This document shows, piece by piece, positions 1,962 through 37,784 of a DNA stretch of 52,605 nt. Below the pieces are notes generated by a model, which ran no database searches, was not told the origin of the DNA, and saw only the letters and a program-made list of their open reading frames with translations. This DNA is from Promethearchaeota archaeon. GTDB lineage: Archaea; Asgardarchaeota; Lokiarchaeia; Sigyniarchaeales; SOKP01. The stretch covers positions 1 through 52,605 of the forward strand of contig JAEOTA010000008.1 of assembly GCA_016840085.1 (NCBI GenBank), read 5' to 3'. The position numbers were made by a program, and so were the translations under genes. Each line of letters starts with the position of its first letter. Position 1 is the first letter of the stretch.

Positions 1962-3290
1962 TTGAAAATGCTAAAATCTAATAACGGGGAAGAAGCGGAA
2001 TCAAAAATAACTCCCGATTTTGTTCCGATGATTAGAATTGTCTTCTGGAATAGTTTAGGATTCTTTTTCTTTCAATTTTTAATTCCTTATGTTACGGCTC
2101 AACTTCTTGAAGCCTCAGGTACCGAAATGGGATTAACATTTGCAAGTCAAACAATTGGTGGTTTAATAAGTACCCCAATTGTTGGTTATCTTACTGATAG
2201 AGTATCTAAAAAGCTTTTGGTATTAATAGGGAGTTTTGGGAGGGCTGCATGTTATATTCTATTGTACGTTGGAATTATTTTTTCTTCCTTAATTATATTT
2301 GCAATAGGATTATTTGTACTAGGATTCTTCCTAGGATTTTTTTGGAGTCCCTTAAATGCATTAATATCAGAAAAATCACATAAAACGTTCCGTTCTTCTG
2401 CATTTGGGAAGCAAGGGGGAATGCTAGGTAAGGGTAATTTTGTTGGATCTATATTTAGTTTTTTAATTTTTGGAATAGCAAATTACTATGTGCCAAATAA
2501 TAGAATTATAGTATATTGTCCATTAATTTTATTTACAATTTCTAATATCTATGCGGGAATTACTTTTCATAGAAAAGTAGATGAAAACTTAACATATGAT
2601 ATTCATATGAACTTCACAAATGAGGTTTCAATGGATTCTGAATTAGAAACGAATCATACATCCTTAACGTTAACTATAGGATTTATGATTGGTTTTATAC
2701 TATTAATAACTGCTTTTATGACAAGTAGCACTAACCAAACCATCGCTCCACCCTTTTTCCAAGTATATTTAATAAACGAATTAAATGTAATTAACCCAAC
2801 ACTGGTAATGTTTATTTATTTTCCTAGTCAAATAATATCATTATTGCTTGCTCCAAGAATGGGTAAACTTGCTGATAGAATTAAACCCCAATTAGCTATT
2901 ATGATCATATGCGGATTTGGAGCTCTGGTAACCTGGCTAATAGTTAATAGTACATCTGGATTAATGTTTGGAATTATTCTGGTATTTGACGTCACATTAG
3001 CATGGGCTAGTTCTTTAGTGCTACAAAATGTGCTTAGTCGCATTTCTAAGGGCCATCGAGGTAAAATTTTTGGAGTCGTTCAGTGGATGAGTTTCTTAGG
3101 AGCTATCGTAGGTCCTATTGTAGGAGGCCTAGCGTGGGATCATTTAGGATTTCAAGCACCATTCATAATCTCTATATTTATAGAATTATCATTAATTCCT
3201 TTATATATTATAGCAATAAGTATATTGAAACCTTATATGGCAGAAAAAATAGAAATGGATTTTAAAAAAGTTGGGGGTAAAGAGATATAG
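1962..3290 (+). CDS. MFS transporter
   Basis: About 12 hydrophobic segments; motif A-like GYLTDRVSKK and GKLADRIKP; GPIVGG. Confidence 0.9.
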   Translation: MKMLKSNNGEEAESKITPDFVPMIRIVFWNSLGFFFFQFLIPYVTAQLLEASGTEMGLTFASQTIGGLISTPIVGYLTDRVSKKLLVLIGSFGRAACYILLYVGIIFSSLIIFAIGLFVLGFFLGFFWSPLNALISEKSHKTFRSSAFGKQGGMLGKGNFVGSIFSFLIFGIANYYVPNNRIIVYCPLILFTISNIYAGITFHRKVDENLTYDIHMNFTNEVSMDSELETNHTSLTLTIGFMIGFILLITAFMTSSTNQTIAPPFFQVYLINELNVINPTLVMFIYFPSQIISLLLAPRMGKLADRIKPQLAIMIICGFGALVTWLIVNSTSGLMFGIILVFDVTLAWASSLVLQNVLSRISKGHRGKIFGVVQWMSFLGAIVGPIVGGLAWDHLGFQAPFIISIFIELSLIPLYIIAISILKPYMAEKIEMDFKKVGGKEI

Positions 3291-3292
3291 TA

Positions 3293-4075
3293 ATGAGACC
3301 GCACCATAAAAAAGCTATAGAAAGATTGGTGGAAAATATTAAAAGAGACGATAGGTTCTTAGCCCTTATTATTGGTGGATCAGTTGCAAAAGGTATGGAA
3401 AGGGAAGATTCGGATATTGATGTCATTCTTGTTGCTACTGATGGGGAATTCGAAAAAAGGAAGAAAAAGAGCATGTTTTTATATTACGAACAGAAGTTCT
3501 GCGATTATCCTGGAGGTTATGTAGATGGTAAGGTTGTAGACCTTCAGTTTTTAAGAACTGTAGCTGATAGAGGGAGTGAACCGGCTAGAGATGCATTTAG
3601 AGATTCTTACCTTGCTTATTCAAAAATTCCTGAACTTGAGAATATCTTAAAAAGAATTCCTATCTTTCAGAAAAATGAAAAACTCAAAAAAATTAGAAAA
3701 TTTTATGCGCAATTCGAAACTGCTAATTGGATTATTAAAGAAGCAGAAAGAAGAAATGATGATTATTTATTAACACGAGGGATTACAGACCTTATCTTAT
3801 TTGGTGGGAGATTAATCCTAGAACATAATGAGATCTTATATCCCTTTCATAAACTATTTATGACAACATTAGAAAAAGCTCCTGACAAGCCAAAGAATCT
3901 AATGACCTTAATTAAAACTCTTTTAAATGATAGAAACTCCAAAAATGCTGATGCTCTTTATGAAACTATTAAAAATTTTAGAAAATGGGAAATCCAAGCA
4001 TTTTGGGCAATTAGGTTTCTACTTGATACTGAATGGGCGTGGATGGAGGGAAAACCATATGTGGGAGATATTTGA
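3293..4075 (+). CDS. Nucleotidyltransferase-domain protein (Pol-beta superfamily)
   Basis: IIGGSVAKG..DSDIDVILV at N-terminus, helical C-terminal part. Confidence 0.85.
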   Translation: MRPHHKKAIERLVENIKRDDRFLALIIGGSVAKGMEREDSDIDVILVATDGEFEKRKKKSMFLYYEQKFCDYPGGYVDGKVVDLQFLRTVADRGSEPARDAFRDSYLAYSKIPELENILKRIPIFQKNEKLKKIRKFYAQFETANWIIKEAERRNDDYLLTRGITDLILFGGRLILEHNEILYPFHKLFMTTLEKAPDKPKNLMTLIKTLLNDRNSKNADALYETIKNFRKWEIQAFWAIRFLLDTEWAWMEGKPYVGDI

Positions 4076-4089
4076 CTCTACAAATTGAA

Positions 4090-5207
4090 CTATATTGGGG
4101 ATATTATCCTATTCTCCCTTGAAGAGTGATAAGCATGATCTATAATTTCATGTGCTCTATAACCAATTTCTAATCCCGGAGATGGTTTTTCTTTCTTAAC
4201 AATAGATTTTAAAAAATGTAGATTTTCGTATAGATAGGGACCTGTTCGTGGATAAAACTGAGGATAATTATGTGCTTTTTGATATTCATCAACTATCTCA
4301 TCAAAGTTAAGACTTTTTCTCTTCCTTCCTATTATATATTCACATTTTTTAAAAGAAAATATAGTATAACCATCTAGAACTAAATACCCATTTTCGAAGA
4401 AAACTTCAAGATGTCGCTCGTCCATTTTTGCTTTATTCCATATGCTAATTAAATTACCCACAAATCCATCTTCACATTCAAATTCTATTGCAGCCACATC
4501 TTCAAGTCTTTTTTGAGATATAGGTGACACATATCTTACTTTAGCAAATAATTTTGATAGGTTTGAATCATCTGTAAAAAGATATTCAACTAAGTCAACA
4601 TCATGGATGCCATGTTCAAAAAGACAGCCTGCGTGGGCTAGGGCTGGATCTTCTCTCCACTTAGAAGGATGAGTACGGGATTCAATTGGCCATTCTTGAG
4701 TATCTCTAAAGATAAATGATAATCTTACACCAAAAGAGTTTTCATTATTCAATAAGATCTGTTTTATTTTCCAAAAAACAGGGCAATGTCGTAATACGAG
4801 TCCTACATGAGTTAATATTCCGTGTTTTTTTCAATTGAAATCATTTCTCTGATATCTTCTAAAGAAAACGCGAGTGGTTTTTCACAAAAAATATTTTTAC
4901 CTTCTTCAGCAGCTTGTATATAATAGTCTTTATGGAATTTCGTAGGACATGTTATATATATGATATCTATTCCTTTATCTTTAATAATTTCAGTAGGATC
5001 TGATGTAAAATATTCTATATTAAATGGATTGTTTATTTTTAAAATTTTTAATTTATTTTCATCAATATCTGCTACTCCTCGTACTTTTATATTAACTCCA
5101 TTCTCAGAAAGGAGATTTTCTTTATGAATTTGTTTGAGCGAACCTAAATGTAAAGATCCAACAATGCCAGTTCCAATCATACCAATATTTAAATTCATCA
5201 AAATCAC
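4090..5207 (-). pseudogene. Gfo/Idh/MocA oxidoreductase split by a 1-nt frameshift (ORFs 4812-5207 and 4090-4752)
   Basis: N-half has IGTGIVG, PTKFH, NIFCEKPLA; C-half has EHGIHDVDL. One extra A in the A7 run (4825-4831) joins them: IEKKHGILTHVGLVLRHCPVFWKIKQILLNNENSFG. Confidence 0.85.
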
Positions 5208-5457
5208 TCTATATTTTGAAATTTAATTTATTATATACTCAGAATAAACAAACTTGAATCAAAATATGAAGAGGAGTTATAAAAAACTTCTTTTTTTAAG
5301 CAATCTAATTTATTAAAACTTTGCCTTATATTCTTTTTTTGAATTAGATCTATTTATTTGGTTAAATTTTATGTTTAATTTTTAAGTATATACCTTATAC
5401 AACCCTAAAATAATAAAATTTAATTATTTGGGAATGTTATAAAATATAACTTAAATT

Positions 5458-5529
5458 GGGGTCGTGGATTAGTGGAAGATCGTTCGCTTGGCATGCGAAA
5501 GGCCGCGGGTTCAATTCCCGCCGACTCCA
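5458..5529 (+). tRNA. tRNA-Ala (anticodon GGC)
   Basis: Acceptor GGGGTCG/CGACTCC with the G3:U70 Ala determinant; anticodon arm TTCGC-TTGGCAT-GCGAA; T arm GCGGG-TTCAATT-CCCGC; discriminator A; no encoded CCA, no intron. Confidence 0.97.
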
Positions 5530-5716
5530 TTACATATTTTTAGATTTGGCTAAAGTTCTTGAAGAACGCGAGCAAAGTGAATCAGATTTCTCAAGTCTTT
5601 AATTTATGAAAAATAAAGGCAAGCTTCCTCATTAAAAGAAAATATAATTTATAATTTTCAAAATTCTTTAAGTTAAAATATTTATGTTTAAATAAGTGTT
5701 CTTATTTTCATAACCT

Positions 5717-8700
5717 ATGACTAAAATTAAAAAAAAATACAATAGATTAGTTATTACGCTAATTTTTTTTAGCTTATTTATTACACCTATTTTTGGAATA
5801 GGATTTTTTCATAATACCATTGCTGATTTAAATAAAGATTCAATATCGAATTTAGATCTATTGTCATCATCACTAAAAGACCGATTAAAAACAGATGATC
5901 AAGATTTGGAACTCCAATTAGATAATAGTAATTCTAAATTCGATGAAGTTCTTAAAGAATATTTATATAATCTCACGATCTCGAATCAAATAAACCAAAA
6001 GAACATGAAAATAATAGTTCTTTTTGATTCTAAGATAAATAAGGGACAAAGAATTGAGATTTTGGATTCAGTTTTTGAAGATTATATATTATTGACTCAT
6101 TACGATATAATTCCAGGTGTTTATATAAAAGTAAGCCCAAACCAACTCATTGGAGAAGAGAAAGCTATAGAGGGAGTTCAATCTATAAAAAAAGTCTATA
6201 AATCTAAAATTTATCAAAATCCTTATATTTCAGATGATTCACTTCGACTGAGTGCGTTAAATAAAGAATCTTATCCTAATTGGTGGCTTTCTGCTATTGG
6301 TGCTGAAAATCTAGCTTATGATGGCAGTAATGTAAGAGTTGCAGTTATTGATACTGGCATATATGATCATCCTGCCTTAAATATTGTTGAAAATAAAAAT
6401 TTCGTTACAAATGAAAGCACTTCAAACTATAATGATGATGTAGGTCATGGAACCCATGTTGGGGGGATTATCGCGGGTGATGGAACAGGTACAGATGGAG
6501 AATATCGGGGTGTTGCCCCTGGAGCATTATTAATCAATGCAAGAGCAGGAAATGCAAGTGGATTGGAGGAAGCTGATATTATAAGCGCTATTGAATGGAG
6601 TTCAGAGCCAGAAGGATTAGGTGGTGCGGGTGCAGACATAATATCAATGAGTTTTGGTGGAGGATATCCTTATATTTCAGATTTAATAACACAAGCTGTA
6701 TCAAAAGCAAAGGAAGATTACGGAGTTATTTTTGTAGCATCAGCGGGTAATGAAGGACCAGATTATTTTACAGGATCTACACCAGCTGCGGGAGTAGATG
6801 TAATTTCTGTAGGCGCAACTGATAAAAATGATGGATTGGCATCTTTTAGTAGTTGGGGCCCTACATTTGGGTATATAGGTTATCCAGATGTTGTTGCTCC
6901 TGGAGTTAATATTATTTCAACAGAAGCGAAAGATTCAATTATATCATTTCAAGAGCGTTATAAAGATAATTATTTTGATTTTACTGGAGATGCAGATTAT
7001 ATCCCTTTAAGTGGTACAAGCATGTCGGCTCCTATGGTTGCTGGAGCTTTAGTTATTTTAAAAGACGCTTTTCCTAATCTCACGCCAGAAACTGCCAGGA
7101 TAGCTTTGTTGGAAGGCGCAAGTAAGCTTCTTGATGAACAAGATGAGGAGGTTCTTAAATCTGGAGCAGGGTTAATAAATGTTTCGGCATCATTAATCTA
7201 TTTAGATAATCAAAAACCAGATTATAATGGTGTTGCTAAAATTTTTCCGGATAATTTGCCTGTTAAACCATTTAACGTATTAAATTTTCCAGGCGATCAT
7301 CTAAAATTTAATTTAACAATAATTTCTGGTGCCAATAACACATACAATATTAATATACCATCTAGTATACAAGGTGTATCGTTTTCAATAGATAAACCAA
7401 GCATTACTTTTAGTGAGAGTAGTATCGATTTTGTTGAATTAGATATAAAGATCGATAATAATGCGATTCCCGGTATAAGAAACTTTCAATTAAACATATC
7501 AGTAGGGGAACAGATATATGATAGTGTAGACATTACTTTAGATATCCGCTTACCAGAATATCGTATTTTAATGGAATCTTATCATGGTGTAAATGATTGG
7601 TTTCCTGACTTTTCATTTAATCAAATGGGATTTTTGGAAGCTATGAATGATCTTGCTGAAATGAATATCTCAATTGATTATCGAATGGAATATTGGACTC
7701 CAGACTATAACAAATACACGAATAATTCAATTTTAACAGAAGAAAAATTAGCACAGTATGATATAGTGTTTTTACAGACACCAATCTTGCCTTATAGCCC
7801 TTTAGAAATAAATAATCTCAAAAATTATTTTGATAAGGGAGGAAATTTAGTATTTTTAGGAACGAGATATCAGGATATGGCAATAGAAAACTTAAATTAC
7901 CTATTCTCTCGATTAGAGTTAGATATTCAAATAAATGAAGAAAATATAATGAATGCTAATTGGCTAGGAATAGGTGCTAGTGTGGACTCTCAAAGTGTTT
8001 ACGATTTTGACAATGACTATATTTTCAAAAATGTAAGTAGGTTCTTTTGGGGGTATGGGAATAGTTTTAGTGTCTTTAATAAGGCAGAATCTATTGCCAC
8101 CGTTAGTAATGCAACAGTTGCAGCCTTTTACAACGGAACATCTGAAGATAAGGGACAATTTTTAGCGTTTGGAGATCTACATTGGATTTATAATAAATAT
8201 GATTCACAAAATTACATTCAAGATCATACAACATTACTAAAAAACATAATAAAGTCTTTCATATCTAAAGATGAAGTATCAATTAATATTGAGCTAATAT
8301 CAGAGCGTACTTCTACTTCTCAAATTGGTATTTCTCTTTATTTAAAAAACCAAGCAACAGAATCTCCAATTACTACCTATAATGACTTAGAAGTAACTAT
8401 TAAAAATGATGCTTACTCGAAATCAATTATACTCGATGCTAGTTTGAAAAGTGAAGGAATTTATTTCAATAATTCTTTTTCTTTACCCTCTCCAAGTTAT
8501 ACTCCTTATTTTATTATCGCTGATTTAACTATAGATGCAAAACATTATAATAAAACGACAAAAATCCTTTATTATGATCAAAGTAAAGTTCCAAAGATAA
8601 TTAACGTCACAACTAGCCAATCTTCTGTATCAAGAGAAGGTGGAAATACAATAAATCTGACTGCTCAATTAGATAACACGAATTATGATATTTTTGAAGG

Positions 8701-33308: not shown

Positions 33309-33761
33309 TTGGGGAAATTTAAAGAGAAATTTGTTCCAGTTCAGATAAATCAGGAATTGTGCTTAAGATGTGAACGATGTTTACGCGCTTGTAAGGCTAA
33401 GGCTATATATTTTGAGCATGGGGTTAGACTGGTTGATTATAACAAATGTAGAGGATGTTTAAACTGTGTTCAAGTCTGTCCTCGAAATGCAATTGAGGTT
33501 ACATCTGGTTTAAGGGTAGATCAAGTAGTAAGTATAAAAATTGATCATGAAATATGTTCTATGTGTAAAGAATGCTTAGATGACAATGGTAAATTCTGTC
33601 CTAAAAATCTTTTTTATAAAGGTAAAGTAAAGAATAAAGAAAATGAAGAAATTGAGGGTATTAGATTTAAATTCAGAGAGATAGCTAAATGTCAAGGATG
33701 CTTAAAATGTGTTGATCTTTGTCCTGAAAATGCGATTAAACCAGTTAAATACAAGGCTTAA
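33309..33761 (+). CDS. Polyferredoxin-like 4Fe-4S protein
   Basis: Four Cys clusters: CLRCERC..C, CRGCLNC..CP, CSMCKEC..CP, CQGCLKC..CP. Confidence 0.88.
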   Translation: MGKFKEKFVPVQINQELCLRCERCLRACKAKAIYFEHGVRLVDYNKCRGCLNCVQVCPRNAIEVTSGLRVDQVVSIKIDHEICSMCKECLDDNGKFCPKNLFYKGKVKNKENEEIEGIRFKFREIAKCQGCLKCVDLCPENAIKPVKYKA

Positions 33762-34414
33762 CCTTCTAATTCTTTAATTTTCTTTATTAGATCATTTAAA
33801 TATAGATTTCCCATTCCTAATTTAACGATTTCGGAAAAAAATAATACTATAGCAAATCTCATATCCTTTATGTCAATATAATACGAGCAAATTTTATGAT
33901 TATTTTCTAATTCGAGATACATTTTTCTTAGATTACTAAGTTTTTTCTCACTTCTTACTTCAAATTCTTTAATGATCGAAAATAATGTATTACTTGGCAG
34001 TGAAGAATATAAAACGTGTCCATTGACATTAAATAATCCAGTTCCTAAAATTTCTTTATTATCTACATAACTTCTTAGAAGCCTAATAATCTTTTGGAAC
34101 AATGGTTGTGTTGTTAGATCAGCTGTTTGGATTTGTTGTTCTACATCACCACCTCCTTCATAAAATTCCATTTTAGCAAATTCGAAGTCAACTTTTTGAT
34201 ATCCACGAACTTTGAAATTTTTATCTACAAAAGACTGAAAAGAATGCTCACATACAGTTCCAGATGGAATTGAGATAGTGGTCAATTGTTTACTTTGGTT
34301 TATAATTTTAGTAGGTATCTTTAGCTCTTTTCTTGCTTTACATGTAGGGCAGACTACGGTAATTTCTTCATATAATTCCTTAGCTCCAATATCGTCTGAC
34401 TCAATCATATACAT
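33758..34414 (-). CDS. Zn-ribbon plus roadblock/profilin-like domain protein
   Basis: N-terminal CPTC..CEHSFQSFVDKNFKVRGY; C-terminal ILGTGLFNVNGHVLYSSLP..VKLGMGNLYL. Confidence 0.6.
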   Translation of the reverse strand: MYMIESDDIGAKELYEEITVVCPTCKARKELKIPTKIINQSKQLTTISIPSGTVCEHSFQSFVDKNFKVRGYQKVDFEFAKMEFYEGGGDVEQQIQTADLTTQPLFQKIIRLLRSYVDNKEILGTGLFNVNGHVLYSSLPSNTLFSIIKEFEVRSEKKLSNLRKMYLELENNHKICSYYIDIKDMRFAIVLFFSEIVKLGMGNLYLNDLIKKIKELEG

Positions 34415-34564: not shown

Positions 34565-36175
34565 TTATAATCTAAATCCCTGATCAACCCAACCAAGAGT
34601 GGAAAATGCCTCTGCTCTCTTAGAACAACAAGAGCATTTTCCACAAGGTTCTTCTCCATCGCTATAGCAACTCCATGTCCATTTAAAAGGAACATCAAGT
34701 TCTTTAGCTAATTTTAAAACATCCTTTTTTTCCATCTTGATCAATGGAAATAATAATTGGATAGTGCTCATATCTTTCGAATGTTTTCCTTTATTGATCA
34801 ATTTTTCAAGTGAATTAAAAAAATGAGAATCCGCATCAGGAAACCTTATAGTATCAGTCAATATGTGCCCTCCTATTATATAATTGCAGCCATAAACTTC
34901 TGCATAATAAGCTGCGATGGAATAAAATACGAGGTTTCGAGTTGGAATGAATCCTTCAGGAGCATGAATAGCAGTTGGAATAGGGAATCCTTCTATTCTT
35001 AAATCTATACTTTCTTTTAAATAATCTATTGGAACCTCAATTATTTTTACTCGCAAAGCTTCAGCTAACCTTTTGGCTGCCAATTTCTCTTTTTCTGGTC
35101 GAAATTGATAATTAAAGGATAGTGCATACAACTCATAGCCTTGATGATGTGCCCAAAATAAAGCAGTAGCAGAATCAAGTCCACCAGATAATAATATAAT
35201 CGCTCTTTTTTCAACTTTTTTTTCTTTTGGGACCAATTTTGCTGCTACAGCTTCTTTAATAGCCTTATTTATATCTGATAAAGTAAAACCTAACGCATTA
35301 GCTGTTTTATTACCATCTGAAGTAATATCACATCTCATAACATCAATCATTTCTTTACAAATTCCTAGGCTTTCTGGAGCTTCTTCAAAACTTATATTAT
35401 TGATTCGTGGTTGAGGGATATTGAAACCTAATTCGATCATATTCTTAACAACCATTTCGATTAATTCAAGCATATTAGTAATTTTGGGGCCCACAAGATC
35501 GTATATTTGCTTATCTTGGCCAATACCATCCGCAGCTGCTAAAAATGCTGCAACTGCATCATTTACAAAAATTGGTTGCATAGGAATTTTTCCACTTCCA
35601 GCAACCAGAACAATTCCATTTCCAATTTGTTCAATAATATCTGGAATCAATTCATCATTAGGTCCTAAAATGTAAGAAGGTCTAAAAATTACATAAGGTA
35701 CTTTCTCTTGTATAATTATTTGCTCAGCAACATTTTTTGAACGGAAATATTCATTATTAGCCCATTCTATTGTTCCATACTTATCAACTCCCAAACCAGA
35801 AGGAAAAATTATCCTAGAAATTCCAGCCTCTAAAGCTGCATTAAGTACGGTACGAATTCCCTCAATATTAACCTTTTCAAAAGTTTCCTTAGAGCCACAC
35901 ACTACCCCTCGGAAATGTATAACTGCTTTACACCTAATGAAAGCATCCCGTAAAGATTTATGATTAAAATCTTTTATAATAATTGCTTCTGCTCCAATAG
36001 ATTCCACTTCTTTAGCGGCTTCTTCTCTTCGCACAATACCAATAACTTGCCATCCCTTTTTAATAGCATATTTTATAGTATGTATCCCTAAATAGCCGTT
36101 AGCACCTGTTATTGCTAATTTCTTATGTTCCATTGTGTGAGCATCCTTTAATTTGTCATGAAAAGTAAAACTCAT
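34565..36175 (-). CDS. queC: Fusion: NAD(P)-dependent SDR/epimerase-like domain plus 7-cyano-7-deazaguanine synthase
   Basis: N-part ITGANGYLG, YFRSK, FRPSYILGP, QPIFVND; C-part LLSGGLDS, FIPTRNLVF, FPDAD, TWSCY..PCGKCSCC..R. Single uninterrupted ORF. Confidence 0.9.
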   Translation of the reverse strand: MSFTFHDKLKDAHTMEHKKLAITGANGYLGIHTIKYAIKKGWQVIGIVRREEAAKEVESIGAEAIIIKDFNHKSLRDAFIRCKAVIHFRGVVCGSKETFEKVNIEGIRTVLNAALEAGISRIIFPSGLGVDKYGTIEWANNEYFRSKNVAEQIIIQEKVPYVIFRPSYILGPNDELIPDIIEQIGNGIVLVAGSGKIPMQPIFVNDAVAAFLAAADGIGQDKQIYDLVGPKITNMLELIEMVVKNMIELGFNIPQPRINNISFEEAPESLGICKEMIDVMRCDITSDGNKTANALGFTLSDINKAIKEAVAAKLVPKEKKVEKRAIILLSGGLDSATALFWAHHQGYELYALSFNYQFRPEKEKLAAKRLAEALRVKIIEVPIDYLKESIDLRIEGFPIPTAIHAPEGFIPTRNLVFYSIAAYYAEVYGCNYIIGGHILTDTIRFPDADSHFFNSLEKLINKGKHSKDMSTIQLLFPLIKMEKKDVLKLAKELDVPFKWTWSCYSDGEEPCGKCSCCSKRAEAFSTLGWVDQGFRL

Positions 36176-36329
36176 AACAATTTCTAGACATTGATTATTA
36201 ATTAATGAAATTATCTTTCTGAAATAATATGTATTATTGTTTTAAATCATAAACTATAAAAATATCAAATAGCTTCTACTATACAAAAATAATAAAACCT
36301 AATGAGAGTAAGAGGGGAGCAGTTAAAAT

Positions 36330-36785
36330 ATGGGATATAAAGTAGTGTTAGATTCAACAGAAATTAAATTTAGTGCGTGTCACTTTTTAAAAGAACCAAA
36401 TCAATGTTCAAGGCTCCATGGTCATAACTATTATGTTTCTGTTGAGATCAGTGATGATTTAAATGAAAACTACTTTGTTGTAGATTTTATTGATCTTAAG
36501 GAGAAATTAGTCTCGATAATTAAGCCTATGGACCATTACATTTTAATACCAACACAGTCATCTGATTTAACAATTCGAGAAGATGAGGATTCAATAGAAA
36601 TTATTGCTTCTAATAAAAGATATGTATTCCCCCGAGCTGATGTATTGTTTCTCCCATTACCTGCAACTACCAGTGAGCTTTTAGCTAAATATATCCATGG
36701 TAAATTAAAAGAATTATTAAAGAATAAAGAAATTACAGTAAAAGTAGGCGAAAGTAAAAGTACTATGGCAATATATGAGGCCTAA
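36330..36785 (+). CDS. queD: 6-carboxy-5,6,7,8-tetrahydropterin synthase
   Basis: FSACHF, CSRLHGHNY, VVDF, MDH, TTSELLA, VGES. Confidence 0.9.
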   Translation: MGYKVVLDSTEIKFSACHFLKEPNQCSRLHGHNYYVSVEISDDLNENYFVVDFIDLKEKLVSIIKPMDHYILIPTQSSDLTIREDEDSIEIIASNKRYVFPRADVLFLPLPATTSELLAKYIHGKLKELLKNKEITVKVGESKSTMAIYEA

Positions 36786-36836: not shown

Positions 36837-37784
36837 ATGTTTTATAAATTATTAAAAATACAAATAAAAACCTTCATTTGTTCCATTCTAATGTTGAGTC
36901 AGAATAATTATAAAATAGGAATATTTTATGGGGTTGGTCCAGATACAGAGATGCTCGCGCAAAAATTTGCAGGCAATCTCATAAATAATGAAGAATTCTG
37001 TAAAGCTTGTGAAGATTTAGAACAAAATGTAAAATGTGATAAATGTAGGGAACATTTAAAGAGTTTTGCGAGCTCTATTTACTTTTACGAGAAAATTGGT
37101 GAAGATATTCCTGAGTTTGTTGAAGACTCAACGGAATATCTACCAAAAAATTTGCCACCTGTCGATTTTTTGTTGGTTGTAGGTATCCATCAAGATTTAC
37201 TTTTAGACCTTCCTAATTATCTCAAGGATAAAGGTATTAAAGCAGTTATAGTTCCAATTGAAGATCCTAAATGGGTGCCTTCAGGACTGCAATCAATGAT
37301 CTTAGAAGAATTCGAGAAATATGGCATCCAAGCAGCATTTCCTAAACCATTTTGTGCATTAAGTAAGGACTTAAATGAATATAATAATATTGGTTTTCAT
37401 CTCACTAAAGAACGTCATTATATTAATGAATTCATAGATTATTTCAAAATAGGCGTTCCAATTATCTCTTTATTACTAAGTAAAGACGGGGAATCAATTG
37501 AAGATAACTGCGTACTACAATCAGCCCCATGTGGGAGCAGTTATTATGTTTGCCAACAACTCAAATCAAAGTATTTCAAAAATGATAAAAATGGAGAATT
37601 ATCATTAAATGAAAGAATTAGTAAAGCTCATCATGCATATCCTTGTAATGCTTCAATGGATCAAGATAATATATTGAAAGATTCAATTCTTCATGTCGGA
37701 GGGTATTTGATTAGAAATGCAATTAGAAGAGAGTTAAACCTCGAAGAACAAGAAGGTCAAAAACTTGTATACGTAATAAAGTGA
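36837..37784 (+). CDS. DUF166-family protein
   Basis: HQDL, AVIVPIE, FPKPFCAL, SAPCGSSYYV, HHAYPCNASM..D..LH..G. Start may be 36891. Confidence 0.8.
   Translation: MFYKLLKIQIKTFICSILMLSQNNYKIGIFYGVGPDTEMLAQKFAGNLINNEEFCKACEDLEQNVKCDKCREHLKSFASSIYFYEKIGEDIPEFVEDSTEYLPKNLPPVDFLLVVGIHQDLLLDLPNYLKDKGIKAVIVPIEDPKWVPSGLQSMILEEFEKYGIQAAFPKPFCALSKDLNEYNNIGFHLTKERHYINEFIDYFKIGVPIISLLLSKDGESIEDNCVLQSAPCGSSYYVCQQLKSKYFKNDKNGELSLNERISKAHHAYPCNASMDQDNILKDSILHVGGYLIRNAIRRELNLEEQEGQKLVYVIK
37555..37784 (+). repeat. Direct repeat A, copy 1 (3' end of DUF166 gene)
   Basis: Aligns without gaps to 40021-40250 (offset 2,466). Confidence 0.95.

Follow-up and report, generated by a model that had tools for sequence, protein, structure and literature searches.

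Locus and distribution of the SDR-QueC fusion

The window analyzed here, the whole stretch of 52,605 nucleotides from a Promethearchaeota archaeon, carries on its minus strand (34565..36175) a single uninterrupted ORF of 536 aa in which an SDR domain is joined through a linker to a QueC-type domain. A sequence-only reading of the window had reported SDR and QueC in one ORF with a divergent queD 154 bp away, and both observations were confirmed: the ORF list, Pfam, and motifs showed that the two halves are intact, and queD (36330..36785, plus strand) encodes a PTPS-I type 6-carboxytetrahydropterin synthase (Pfam PTPS, 80.7 bits; CSRLHGH at 36405..36425). The extended SDR domain (residues ~17-316; 35228..36127, minus) was delimited by Pfam, NCBIfam, alignments, and Foldseek, and the QueC-type PP-loop/Zn domain, here called QueC2 (residues 323-526; 34598..35209, minus), by Pfam, TIGR00364, alignment to 3bl5, and a tree. 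Between them lies a Lys/Glu-rich linker, AAKLVPKEKKVEK (residues 311-323; 35207..35245, minus), recognized by a dip in pLDDT and by alignment variability. An AlphaFold2 model of the whole fusion had a mean pLDDT of 93.3 and a pTM of 0.85; pLDDT falls to 79 at linker residues 311-320, the least conserved stretch of the alignment. The divergent promoter region between the fusion and queD (36176..36329) spans 154 bp with 21% G+C. Alignment of 15 orthologous spacers revealed a block of ~56 nt (36234..36289), conserved in at least 80% of the sequences, that contains TATA-like TTTTTATA elements; no Rfam family, riboswitch, or known RNA matched the spacer.

The flanking genes are given for context. 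A DUF166 gene 3' of queD (36837..37784, plus; Pfam DUF166) and a gene for a 218-aa protein downstream of the fusion (33758..34414, minus; no Pfam, NCBIfam, or PADLOC match) are neighbors in 33 and 30, respectively, of 63 fusion loci, both in the same one of two flanking contexts. Methanococcus DUF166 is tied to CODH/ACS. Because neither neighbor is linked in the other context, pathway membership was unsupported for both, and the DUF166 gene probably lies outside the fusion/queD system. In one metatranscriptome run, three 151-nt contigs fell inside 35271..35698, none of them bridging the junction, which gives a weak hint that the fusion gene is expressed.

The sequence-only reading had set a search for the same domain architecture as the test of whether the fusion is unique to this assembly. 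The same SDR plus QueC Pfam architecture was found in at least 294 database proteins, and the fusion was present in 66 of 379 Asgard species genomes, which as relatives are not independent samples. The junction was identical in an independent Logan contig spanning the SDR-QueC joint and was conserved in more than 60 genomes. Together, the homologues, the genome counts, and the independent contig ruled out an assembly artefact or a lost stop codon. NCBI names (Hod-, Hermod-, Thor-, Odin-, and Sigynarchaeota) suggested an Asgard-wide spread, but in a GTDB-based sample the fusion occurred only within one order, in two related families, a main one (f1) and a second one (f26). A divergent clade of fusions found beside DUF6807/Gfo-Idh-MocA was considered as bacterial and sugar related; the clade proved to be Asgard family f26, and DUF6807 was not found in the genome under study.

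A split form of the pair, with adjacent same-frame or overlapping genes, occurs in two metagenome contigs and in 4 of 121 Bathyarchaeia; in the latter, one or two stop codons and then a GTG start occupy the linker position. The SDR and QueC2 genes are unlinked in one Asgard relative (G148). One bathyarchaeon (G252) encodes an SDR-QueC2 pair plus a second QueC, which hints at a non-redundant function of the pair. No paper describing an SDR-QueC fusion was found in the literature, in agreement with the sequence-only reading, which knew of no description of it.

Sequence features of the SDR and QueC halves

Invariant columns of both halves were judged in 21- and 66-sequence alignments. In the SDR half, the Pfam families Epimerase, NAD_binding_10, and NmrA matched over residues ~17-223 (E 1e-20). 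The cofactor motif TGANGYLG (TGxxGxxG; residues 23-30, 36086..36109) is followed by a catalytic triad of Ser126 (within 35789..35803), Tyr143, and Lys147, the last two within YFRSK (residues 143-147, 35735..35749). Across the 66 sequences, which extend down to 24% identity, the motif glycines G24, G27, and G30 as well as R49, S126, and K147 were invariant, and Y143 was nearly so. A helix, CKEMxDVMRCD (35327..35359), and Cys282 in the substrate domain are also conserved. The domain had been called an atypical SDR; it is instead an extended SDR with a full C-terminal substrate domain. Stand-alone homologues of ~300 aa span residues 17-316 of the fusion, and the model aligned with full-length epimerases over ~320-350 columns, including the second, substrate-binding lobe. 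The nearest folds were WbmH (2Q1W), GalE, UDP-GlcA 4-epimerase, and NDUFA9 (Foldseek TM 0.7-0.77; sequence E down to 2e-18, about 20% identity), with which the SDR half shares the two-lobed fold, TGxxGxxG, and the Ser-Tyr-Lys triad. Unlike these extended SDRs, it lies outside any sugar-nucleotide or complex I context and is paired or fused with QueC2. The SDR half is a catalytically intact extended SDR, probably specific for NADP(H), and Arg49-Arg50 after strand 2 (within 36023..36034) suggests the use of NADPH.

The closest solved relatives in a PDB sequence search were the NDUFA9 family/39-kDa subunits, and the SDR half is filed as a relative of the NDUFA9 SDR branch rather than a member, on sequence and fold likeness only. 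This relationship and the NmrA match would fit a non-catalytic NADP(H) sensor or scaffold, NmrA- or NDUFA9-like, that tunes an ordinary QueC while an unrelated, unrecognized enzyme replaces QueE. Such a role is very improbable: the fused and stand-alone forms alike keep Ser126, Tyr143, and Lys147 with little or no variation, and the entire substrate-binding domain is retained.

The QueC half matched Pfam QueC over residues 324-526 (E 1.5e-53; 181.9 bits versus a cutoff of 22), and its NCBIfam TIGR00364 score of 150.5 was barely above the equivalog cutoff of 150.3. The sequence-only reading had described a complete QueC. That description held for the PP-loop SGGLDS (SGGxDS; residues 330-335, 35171..35188; G331 and S335 invariant in 66 sequences), for IPTRN, a VPxRN-type motif (residues 410-414, 34934..34948), and for the C-terminal zinc-site cysteines C503, C511, C514, and C517 (34625..34669; near-invariant in 66 sequences). 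It did not hold for the canonical motifs YxQxHxxE and YPDC, which are altered to YQFRPEKE (35087..35110) and FPDA (34832..34843), or for the first spacing of the Cys4 site, which is x7 in the fusion versus the canonical x8. The YPDC change is not decisive against QueC membership, since FPDN occurs in one Asgard QueC located near QueE. QueC2 could be aligned with Bacillus subtilis QueC (3bl5), and through this alignment the residues found essential by mutagenesis of Escherichia coli QueC (Y35, R99, Y131, and Y189; PMC13329287) correspond to Y356, R413, F445, and Y504 of the fusion; the E. coli Y131F variant retains partial activity (PMC13329287).

With its ~205 aa and its queD neighbor, QueC2 resembles canonical QueC; it differs in being fused to a 320-aa SDR and in having no QueE partner in most carriers. 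In the tree, SDR-linked QueCs, whether fused, adjacent, or unlinked, formed one clade (95/91 support) that was separate from canonical QueCs and within the QueC family. QueC2 most likely performs QueC chemistry. Gat-QueC, a glutamine amidotransferase-QueC fusion of Crenarchaeota and phages, likewise joins an archaeal QueC domain to a second catalytic domain in 7-deazaguanine metabolism, but its partner is an amidotransferase that supplies nitrogen, whereas the partner here, an NADP-type oxidoreductase, implies redox chemistry in place of nitrogen delivery. An anti-phage QueC paralogue (QatC, Cap9, or Dpd QueC) was also considered. PADLOC on the fusion and its neighbors returned the generic QueC model only (87.8 bits), with no defense partner gene, and the candidate was rejected on this result and on the lack of a DpdA-type TGT in the genome.

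Pathway genes in carriers of the fusion

The route from GTP through CPH4 and CDG to preQ0 is treated as universal, serving queuosine, archaeosine, deazapurine antibiotics, and modified phage DNA; to our knowledge, QueE is its only ring-contracting enzyme. The pathway-gene inventory that the sequence-only reading had called for bore out its observation that tgt, arcS, folE, and queE are missing from the window: tgtA, arcS, and mptA/folE2 lie on other contigs, and the 98.8%-complete genome encodes MptA/FolE2, QueD, ArcTGT, and ArcS, with the fusion as its sole real QueC match. QueE was not detected in this genome (no match to TIGR04508, TIGR03365, or an Asgard QueE profile; xFxSxQGEG in no ORF), in CP070831 (a closed chromosome from the same genus), or in some 20 further f1 carriers, results that represent non-detection and not proof of absence. 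QueE was found beside canonical QueC in sister genera. A 222-aa radical-SAM protein (P0271) was rejected as a substitute for QueE: a PDB search matched it to no QueE, some carriers do not have it, and genera that lack the fusion do; the remaining radical-SAM matches in this genome were NrdG2 and glycyl-radical activases. Carriers in f26 encode the fusion, an unlinked QueD, and an unusual QueE-like gene, which make up a full preQ0 pathway if the fusion serves as the f26 QueC. The real puzzle is the non-detection of QueE in nearly all carriers tested, which the sequence-only reading had overlooked, and not a missing reductive step.

The earlier tie to 7-deazaguanine chemistry is upheld by the linkage to a PTPS-I-type queD. 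Of 55 loci with sufficient DNA upstream, 52 have queD divergently adjacent to the fusion, across two flanking contexts, and the pairing persists with an unchanged PTPS-I active-site motif across five genera. By the motif definitions of PMC5041015, the fusion-linked queD has the PTPS-I motif but not the PTPS-III Glu. Its identity to queD genes from the canonical queE-queD-queC clusters of sister genera is 66-73%.

Pterins and 7-deazaguanines have the 2-amino-4-oxopyrimidine ring in common, and known pterin redox enzymes are SDRs. The QueC half might activate the 6-carboxylate of 6-carboxytetrahydropterin, the QueD product, or of scavenged pterin-6-carboxylate, which genomes without QueD could use, and the SDR might reduce it toward 6-formyl- or 6-hydroxymethylpterin for methanopterin or folate. 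This would account for the ATP and NADPH logic of the fusion and, since QueE would be unneeded, for its non-detection. We consider a pterin enzyme improbable nonetheless. The archaeal dihydroneopterin aldolase, MptD, was found in 31 of 31 family genomes, whether or not they carry the fusion, so that there is no gap to fill, and a role in a missing aldolase step of methanopterin synthesis was rejected on the same count. Asgards that use PTPS for pterins carry a PTPS-III or I/III motif, in contrast to the pure PTPS-I of the fusion-linked queD, and the distribution of the fusion within the family is patchy.

A candidate redox-coupled preQ0 synthase

The known preQ0 pathway probably takes an undescribed form here. 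As a tentative first choice, which may well prove wrong, we propose that the fusion is a bifunctional, redox-coupled preQ0 synthase belonging to a version of the 7-deazaguanine pathway that operates without QueE, with the SDR step upstream of the nitrile synthase. QueC2 would adenylate, at the expense of ATP, a carboxylate on a ring fused to 2-amino-4-oxopyrimidine; attack by ammonia would give the amide, and a second adenylation followed by elimination would give the nitrile, preQ0. The SDR half would act on the same small molecule in a redox step, and the two would be obligate partners, encoded as fused, adjacent, or unlinked genes according to lineage. In this genome, the enzyme would work with the divergent PTPS-I QueD and supply ArcTGT and ArcS. 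Since QueE went undetected, the SDR step is placed before the nitrile synthase, in a QueE-free route to the QueC substrate that could start from the QueD product or from a salvaged precursor; we infer the substrate and the redox direction, and an unrecognized enzyme may do the ring contraction.

Several points count against this proposal, among them the second QueC of G252. Two canonical motifs, YxQxHxxE and YPDC, are altered, and we know of no polar chemistry for contraction of a pterin to a deazapurine ring. No PTPS/QueD was found in the Bathyarchaeia with the pair or in G148, so the pair cannot always act on the QueD product. Nor are ArcTGT and ArcS proof of de novo preQ0 synthesis here, since most Asgards keep ArcTGT without QueC or QueE.

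The genomes without QueD bear on a second possibility, in which the SDR oxidizes or reduces a scavenged 7-substituted 7-deazaguanine to the acid or amide and the QueC half converts this to preQ0, with no de novo pathway. Substrates could be, for example, aldehyde, alcohol, or aminomethyl derivatives from turnover of queuosine, preQ1, or archaeosine, and the scheme overlaps the proposed synthase, minus QueD as the source. QueE, too, was not found in the four pair-carrying Bathyarchaeia or G148; G148 has a homologue of the YhhQ/COG1738 transporter; and most Asgards apparently depend on salvaged precursors (ArcTGT in 139 of 151, with QueC and QueE patchy). Salvage conversion is nevertheless unlikely, if less so than the other alternatives: it leaves unexplained the lasting pairing with a divergent queD, YhhQ is absent from this genome and most carriers, and SDRs seldom oxidize amines or aldehydes to acids. 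Co-occurrence with ArcTGT or YhhQ did not discriminate between de novo synthesis and salvage.

The order of the two steps could also be reversed. Arg49-Arg50 points to NADPH and hence to reduction, a feature no less compatible with a reductase downstream of QueC than with an upstream step. The QueC half would then yield an acyl-adenylate or nitrile, and the SDR would use NADPH to form 7-formyl- or 7-aminomethyl-7-deazaguanine, either as a QueF analogue or with the whole enzyme acting as a carboxylate reductase without a carrier domain. Carboxylic acid reductases and the terminal reductases of NRPSs (A-PCP-R) similarly combine an ATP-dependent, carboxylate-adenylating module with an NADPH-dependent SDR-fold reductase. 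Thioester-reductase and NAD_binding_4 models (Pfam/NCBIfam) match the SDR half weakly, its conserved Cys282 lies in the substrate domain, and the C-terminal domain of extended SDRs holds a nucleotide handle of the kind that an acyl-AMP would offer. Unlike carboxylic acid reductases, the fusion has a PP-loop ATPase instead of an ANL module and lacks a phosphopantetheine carrier domain.

The analogy to QueF, an NADPH-dependent enzyme that acts right after QueC in bacteria, is functional. QueF, a T-fold enzyme, forms a Cys thioimide; the redox domain of the fusion has the SDR fold. No match to QueF (PF14489) was found in the genome, which would leave room for an analogue. Archaea with ArcS, on the other hand, need the preQ0 nitrile kept on tRNA, and reduction of the product of the sole QueC would starve the ArcTGT and ArcS that this genome retains. 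It also encodes nothing that would use preQ1 or a formyl base, as there is no second TGT, DpdA, or queA-type context, and the non-detection of QueE would go unexplained. A downstream reductase is therefore rather unlikely. The QueF analogue or new deazapurine product put forward by the sequence-only reading found no specific evidence, and the QueF analogue is possible but not favored.

A bolder version of the proposed synthase is unlikely: SDR-QueC2 and QueD together would make preQ0 without radical-SAM QueE, with a transient oxidation by bound NADP+, of the kind used by related epimerases and dehydratases, or another redox trick driving or bypassing ring contraction, and f26, with its aberrant QueE-like gene, and f1, with none, would mark steps in a progressive loss of QueE. 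In more than 60 Asgard species, a QueC-type enzyme is joined to a catalytically intact oxidoreductase and retained together with an orthodox QueD, and the f1 carriers tested have no detectable QueE. Either a QueE-independent route exists, or an unrecognized QueE analogue is still to be discovered, or QueC chemistry now serves to make a new product by a redox-coupled route. The retention of ArcTGT without any preQ0 synthesis genes in most Asgard archaea belongs to the same picture. The analysis also corrects the annotation of SDR-QueC proteins, which databases now label plain "7-cyano-7-deazaguanine synthase."

Anatomy of the fusion gene

The fusion is a single uninterrupted ORF of 536 aa (34565..36175, minus strand), which is separated by 154 bp from the divergent queD ORF (36330..36785, plus strand; 151 aa; Pfam PTPS/QueD, E 1e-22). 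ORF listing, Pfam, and NCBIfam confirmed the intact joining of SDR and QueC beside queD that had been proposed from the sequence, and every motif named in that sequence-only reading was found in place. Pfam searches matched an Epimerase/NAD_binding_10/NmrA-type domain at residues ∼17 to 223 (E 1e-20) and a QueC domain at residues 324 to 526 (E 1.5e-53), and the protein scored 150.5 against the NCBIfam QueC equivalog model (cut-off, 150.3). The SDR had been called atypical; instead, the N-terminal 320 residues make up a complete extended SDR. TGANGYLG, Ser126, Tyr143, and Lys147 showed little or no variation across alignments of 21 and 66 homologues, and by these features the SDR half looks catalytic. 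An Arg pair after strand 2 of an SDR points to NADP(H); Arg49-Arg50 sits there in the SDR half and points to NADP(H) as its predicted cofactor.

An AlphaFold2 model of the fusion (66-sequence input) had a mean pLDDT of 93.3 and a pTM of 0.85, with a sole internal pLDDT dip to 79 in block 311 to 320, at the Lys/Glu-rich linker. In Foldseek searches, residues ∼17 to 330 matched whole nucleotide-sugar epimerases (WbmH, GalE, and UDP-GlcA 4-epimerase) and complex I NDUFA9 subunits, all at TM 0.7 to 0.77. The nearest solved sequence relatives of the SDR half were NDUFA9-type proteins (E down to 2e-18). The N-terminal half belongs to the NDUFA9/3-beta-HSD-like branch of extended SDRs.

The C-terminal half aligned with Bacillus subtilis QueC over its full length and retains SGGLDS, IPTRN, and the four zinc cysteines. 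Residues Y35, R99, Y131, and Y189 are essential in Escherichia coli QueC, where Y131F has partial activity (2026 study, PMC13329287); the corresponding fusion residues are Y356, R413, F445, and Y504. The QueC half departs from canonical YxQxHxxE and YPDC, with YQFRPEKE and FPDA instead. Judged by score, fold-defining motifs, and essential residues, it is a predicted member of the QueC family, yet in a clade of its own, and it looks functional.

Databases annotate the fusion plainly as QueC. The sequence-only reading did not know it as described, and it is mentioned neither in the 2026 QueC family survey and its supplement nor in any other paper found. Among the closest known architectures is Gat-QueC, whose QueC has a different partner domain, while carboxylic acid reductases and the QueC-QueF pair are near by logic only.

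Distribution and age of the SDR-QueC pairing

Uniqueness to this assembly was refuted by a protein search, which returned at least 294 homologues of 515 to 570 aa with the same architecture, and by a survey of every Asgard species genome at least 70% complete (n = 379), 66 of which carried the fusion. A scan of species-representative genomes yielded 66 fetched fusion loci. Read-level data contributed little beyond this: an independent contig crosses the fusion junction unchanged, and one metatranscriptome held short fragments nearly identical to parts of the SDR region. The fusion was present in 63 of 128 genomes of the family to which the window belongs (five genera) and in 2 of 3 genomes of a second family within its order, counts that come from related genomes and hence are not independent observations. 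The fusion of the second family (Sigynarchaeota in public records) forms a divergent clade. At its loci, a DUF6807 (PF14100) gene follows on the same strand (L128, L132, L133, L201, and L202); nearby are a PHO4 phosphate transporter (L132 and L133), a PhoU-like gene and a Gfo/Idh/MocA oxidoreductase (L132), and an MFS sugar-type transporter (L128). No DUF6807 was found in the window's genome.

Other states of the pairing were also found. In 4 of 121 Bathyarchaeia genomes, the halves are adjacent same-frame genes, with only a stop codon or two and then a GTG start lying between them; the boundary reads TGA TAA GTG or TGA CAA GTG (L072:8712-8720 and L065:1294-1302), and loss of one stop codon would restore the fused ORF. 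Two metagenome contigs encode the halves as separate adjacent or overlapping genes, and in one Asgard relative (G148) they lie on different contigs. Stand-alone SDRs of ∼300 aa span fusion residues 17 to 316 at 43 to 47% identity. A maximum-likelihood tree of QueC domains gathered every SDR-linked QueC into one clade (support, 95/91). A separate clade held the bacterial QueCs and most QueE-adjacent Asgard QueCs, and the QueC beside QueE in Asgard genome G026 lay outside both. The SDR half and the SDR-linked QueC clade were never parted in evolution. Given these states and the single clade, the pairing dates far back and belongs to one QueC subfamily alone.

The queD partner and the shared spacer

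Divergent queD adjoined the fusion in 52 of the 55 loci with enough upstream DNA, mostly across 126 to 224 bp. Two different sets of genes flank the queD-fusion pair, which therefore is a unit and not mere synteny. A DUF166 gene (36837..37784, downstream of queD) and a 218-aa family-less protein are neighbors in only one of these contexts; DUF166 has been tied to CODH/ACS-dependent autotrophy in a Methanococcus transposon study (bioRxiv 10.1101/2024.03.05.583561). Within the spacer, a block of ∼56 nt with TATA-like elements (36234..36289) was kept in at least 80% of the sequences when 15 orthologous spacers were compared, while the encoded proteins were merely 64 to 82% identical. The block matched no family in an Rfam search; an operator or promoter used by both genes is a possibility.

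Fusion-linked queD is of PTPS-I type by its motif, C[ST]RLHGH, with no PTPS-III glutamate (definitions from PMC5041015), and it was 66 to 73% identical to its counterparts in the canonical queE-queD-queC clusters of sister genera. In the main family, the QueC half is tied to an orthodox QueD. The PTPS of Asgards without QueC and QueE reads ExxHGH or CExxHGH; at L191 to L198, from such genomes, the lone PTPS has a PTPS-III or I/III signature.

Pathway genes in carriers and the possible reaction

The window's genome (4.68 Mb, 98.8% complete) encodes ArcTGT, ArcS, and an MptA/FolE2-type cyclohydrolase, with the fusion as its sole real QueC and no QueF. Two curated models and a profile from nine Asgard QueEs detected no QueE, a result distinct from proven absence; the QueE N-terminal motif was absent from every ORF, and the top radical-SAM matches were NrdG2 and glycyl-radical activases. 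QueE was likewise undetected in a closed chromosome of the same genus (CP070831), in other carriers of the family, in the four Bathyarchaeia with the pair, and in G148. In sister genera whose QueC is canonical, an obvious QueE adjoins it.

There were exceptions. Asgard carrier G093 has, besides the fusion, a QueE in a separate FolE-QueD-QueE-QueC island. This run (L104, G093:C7:60000-66316, ORFs 2729-6134) comprises SpoVS-like, QueD, QueE, a 125-aa unknown, FolE (GTP cyclohydrolase I), a PNKP-like phosphatase, and divergent QueC, all on one strand and interspersed with small unknown ORFs at a contig end. The locus resembles a 7-deazaguanine island of mobile or viral type. Each second-family carrier encodes an unlinked QueD plus a QueE-like gene of 216 aa, which with the fusion would complete the pathway if the fusion is the sole QueC there. 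The QueE-like protein (L199:4401-5051 and L200:4247-4897) has the QueE N-terminal motif and cluster cysteines spaced C-x5-C-x3-C, versus CxxxCxxC or Cx14CxxC.

From the functional-looking QueC, the tie to QueD, the second-family co-occurrence, and the never-separated SDR, we read the fusion protein as a putative redox-coupled preQ0 synthase. Because QueE was undetected in most carriers, the redox step would be placed within a QueE-independent route to the QueC substrate. That the fusion marks such a route is improbable in our estimation; if true, it would be a major finding. No polar mechanism is known by which the ring could contract. Alternatively, the SDR half could reduce the adenylate or nitrile, which fits the NADPH-type signature. 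The idea that the fusion fills a gap in methanopterin synthesis was rejected, as MptD is universal in the family.

Some genomes with the pair but without QueD argue for a salvaged precursor feeding it: no PTPS was found in the Bathyarchaeia with the pair or in G148. Among 151 Asgards sampled, ArcTGT was present in 139, many of them without QueC or QueE, so its presence is no proof of de novo synthesis; PTPS was present in 115. Since ArcTGT is nearly universal and QueC and QueE are patchy, most Asgards seem to rely on scavenged preQ0. A YhhQ transporter homologue was sporadic and uninformative.

A 222-aa radical-SAM protein adjoining the CCA-adding enzyme in the window's genome (P0271; G000:C4:16604-17269, L086:1378-2046) was tested as a QueE substitute and rejected. 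It matched no specific family, is patchy in the window's family (12 of 31 genomes), and could be the archaeosine enzyme RaSEA.
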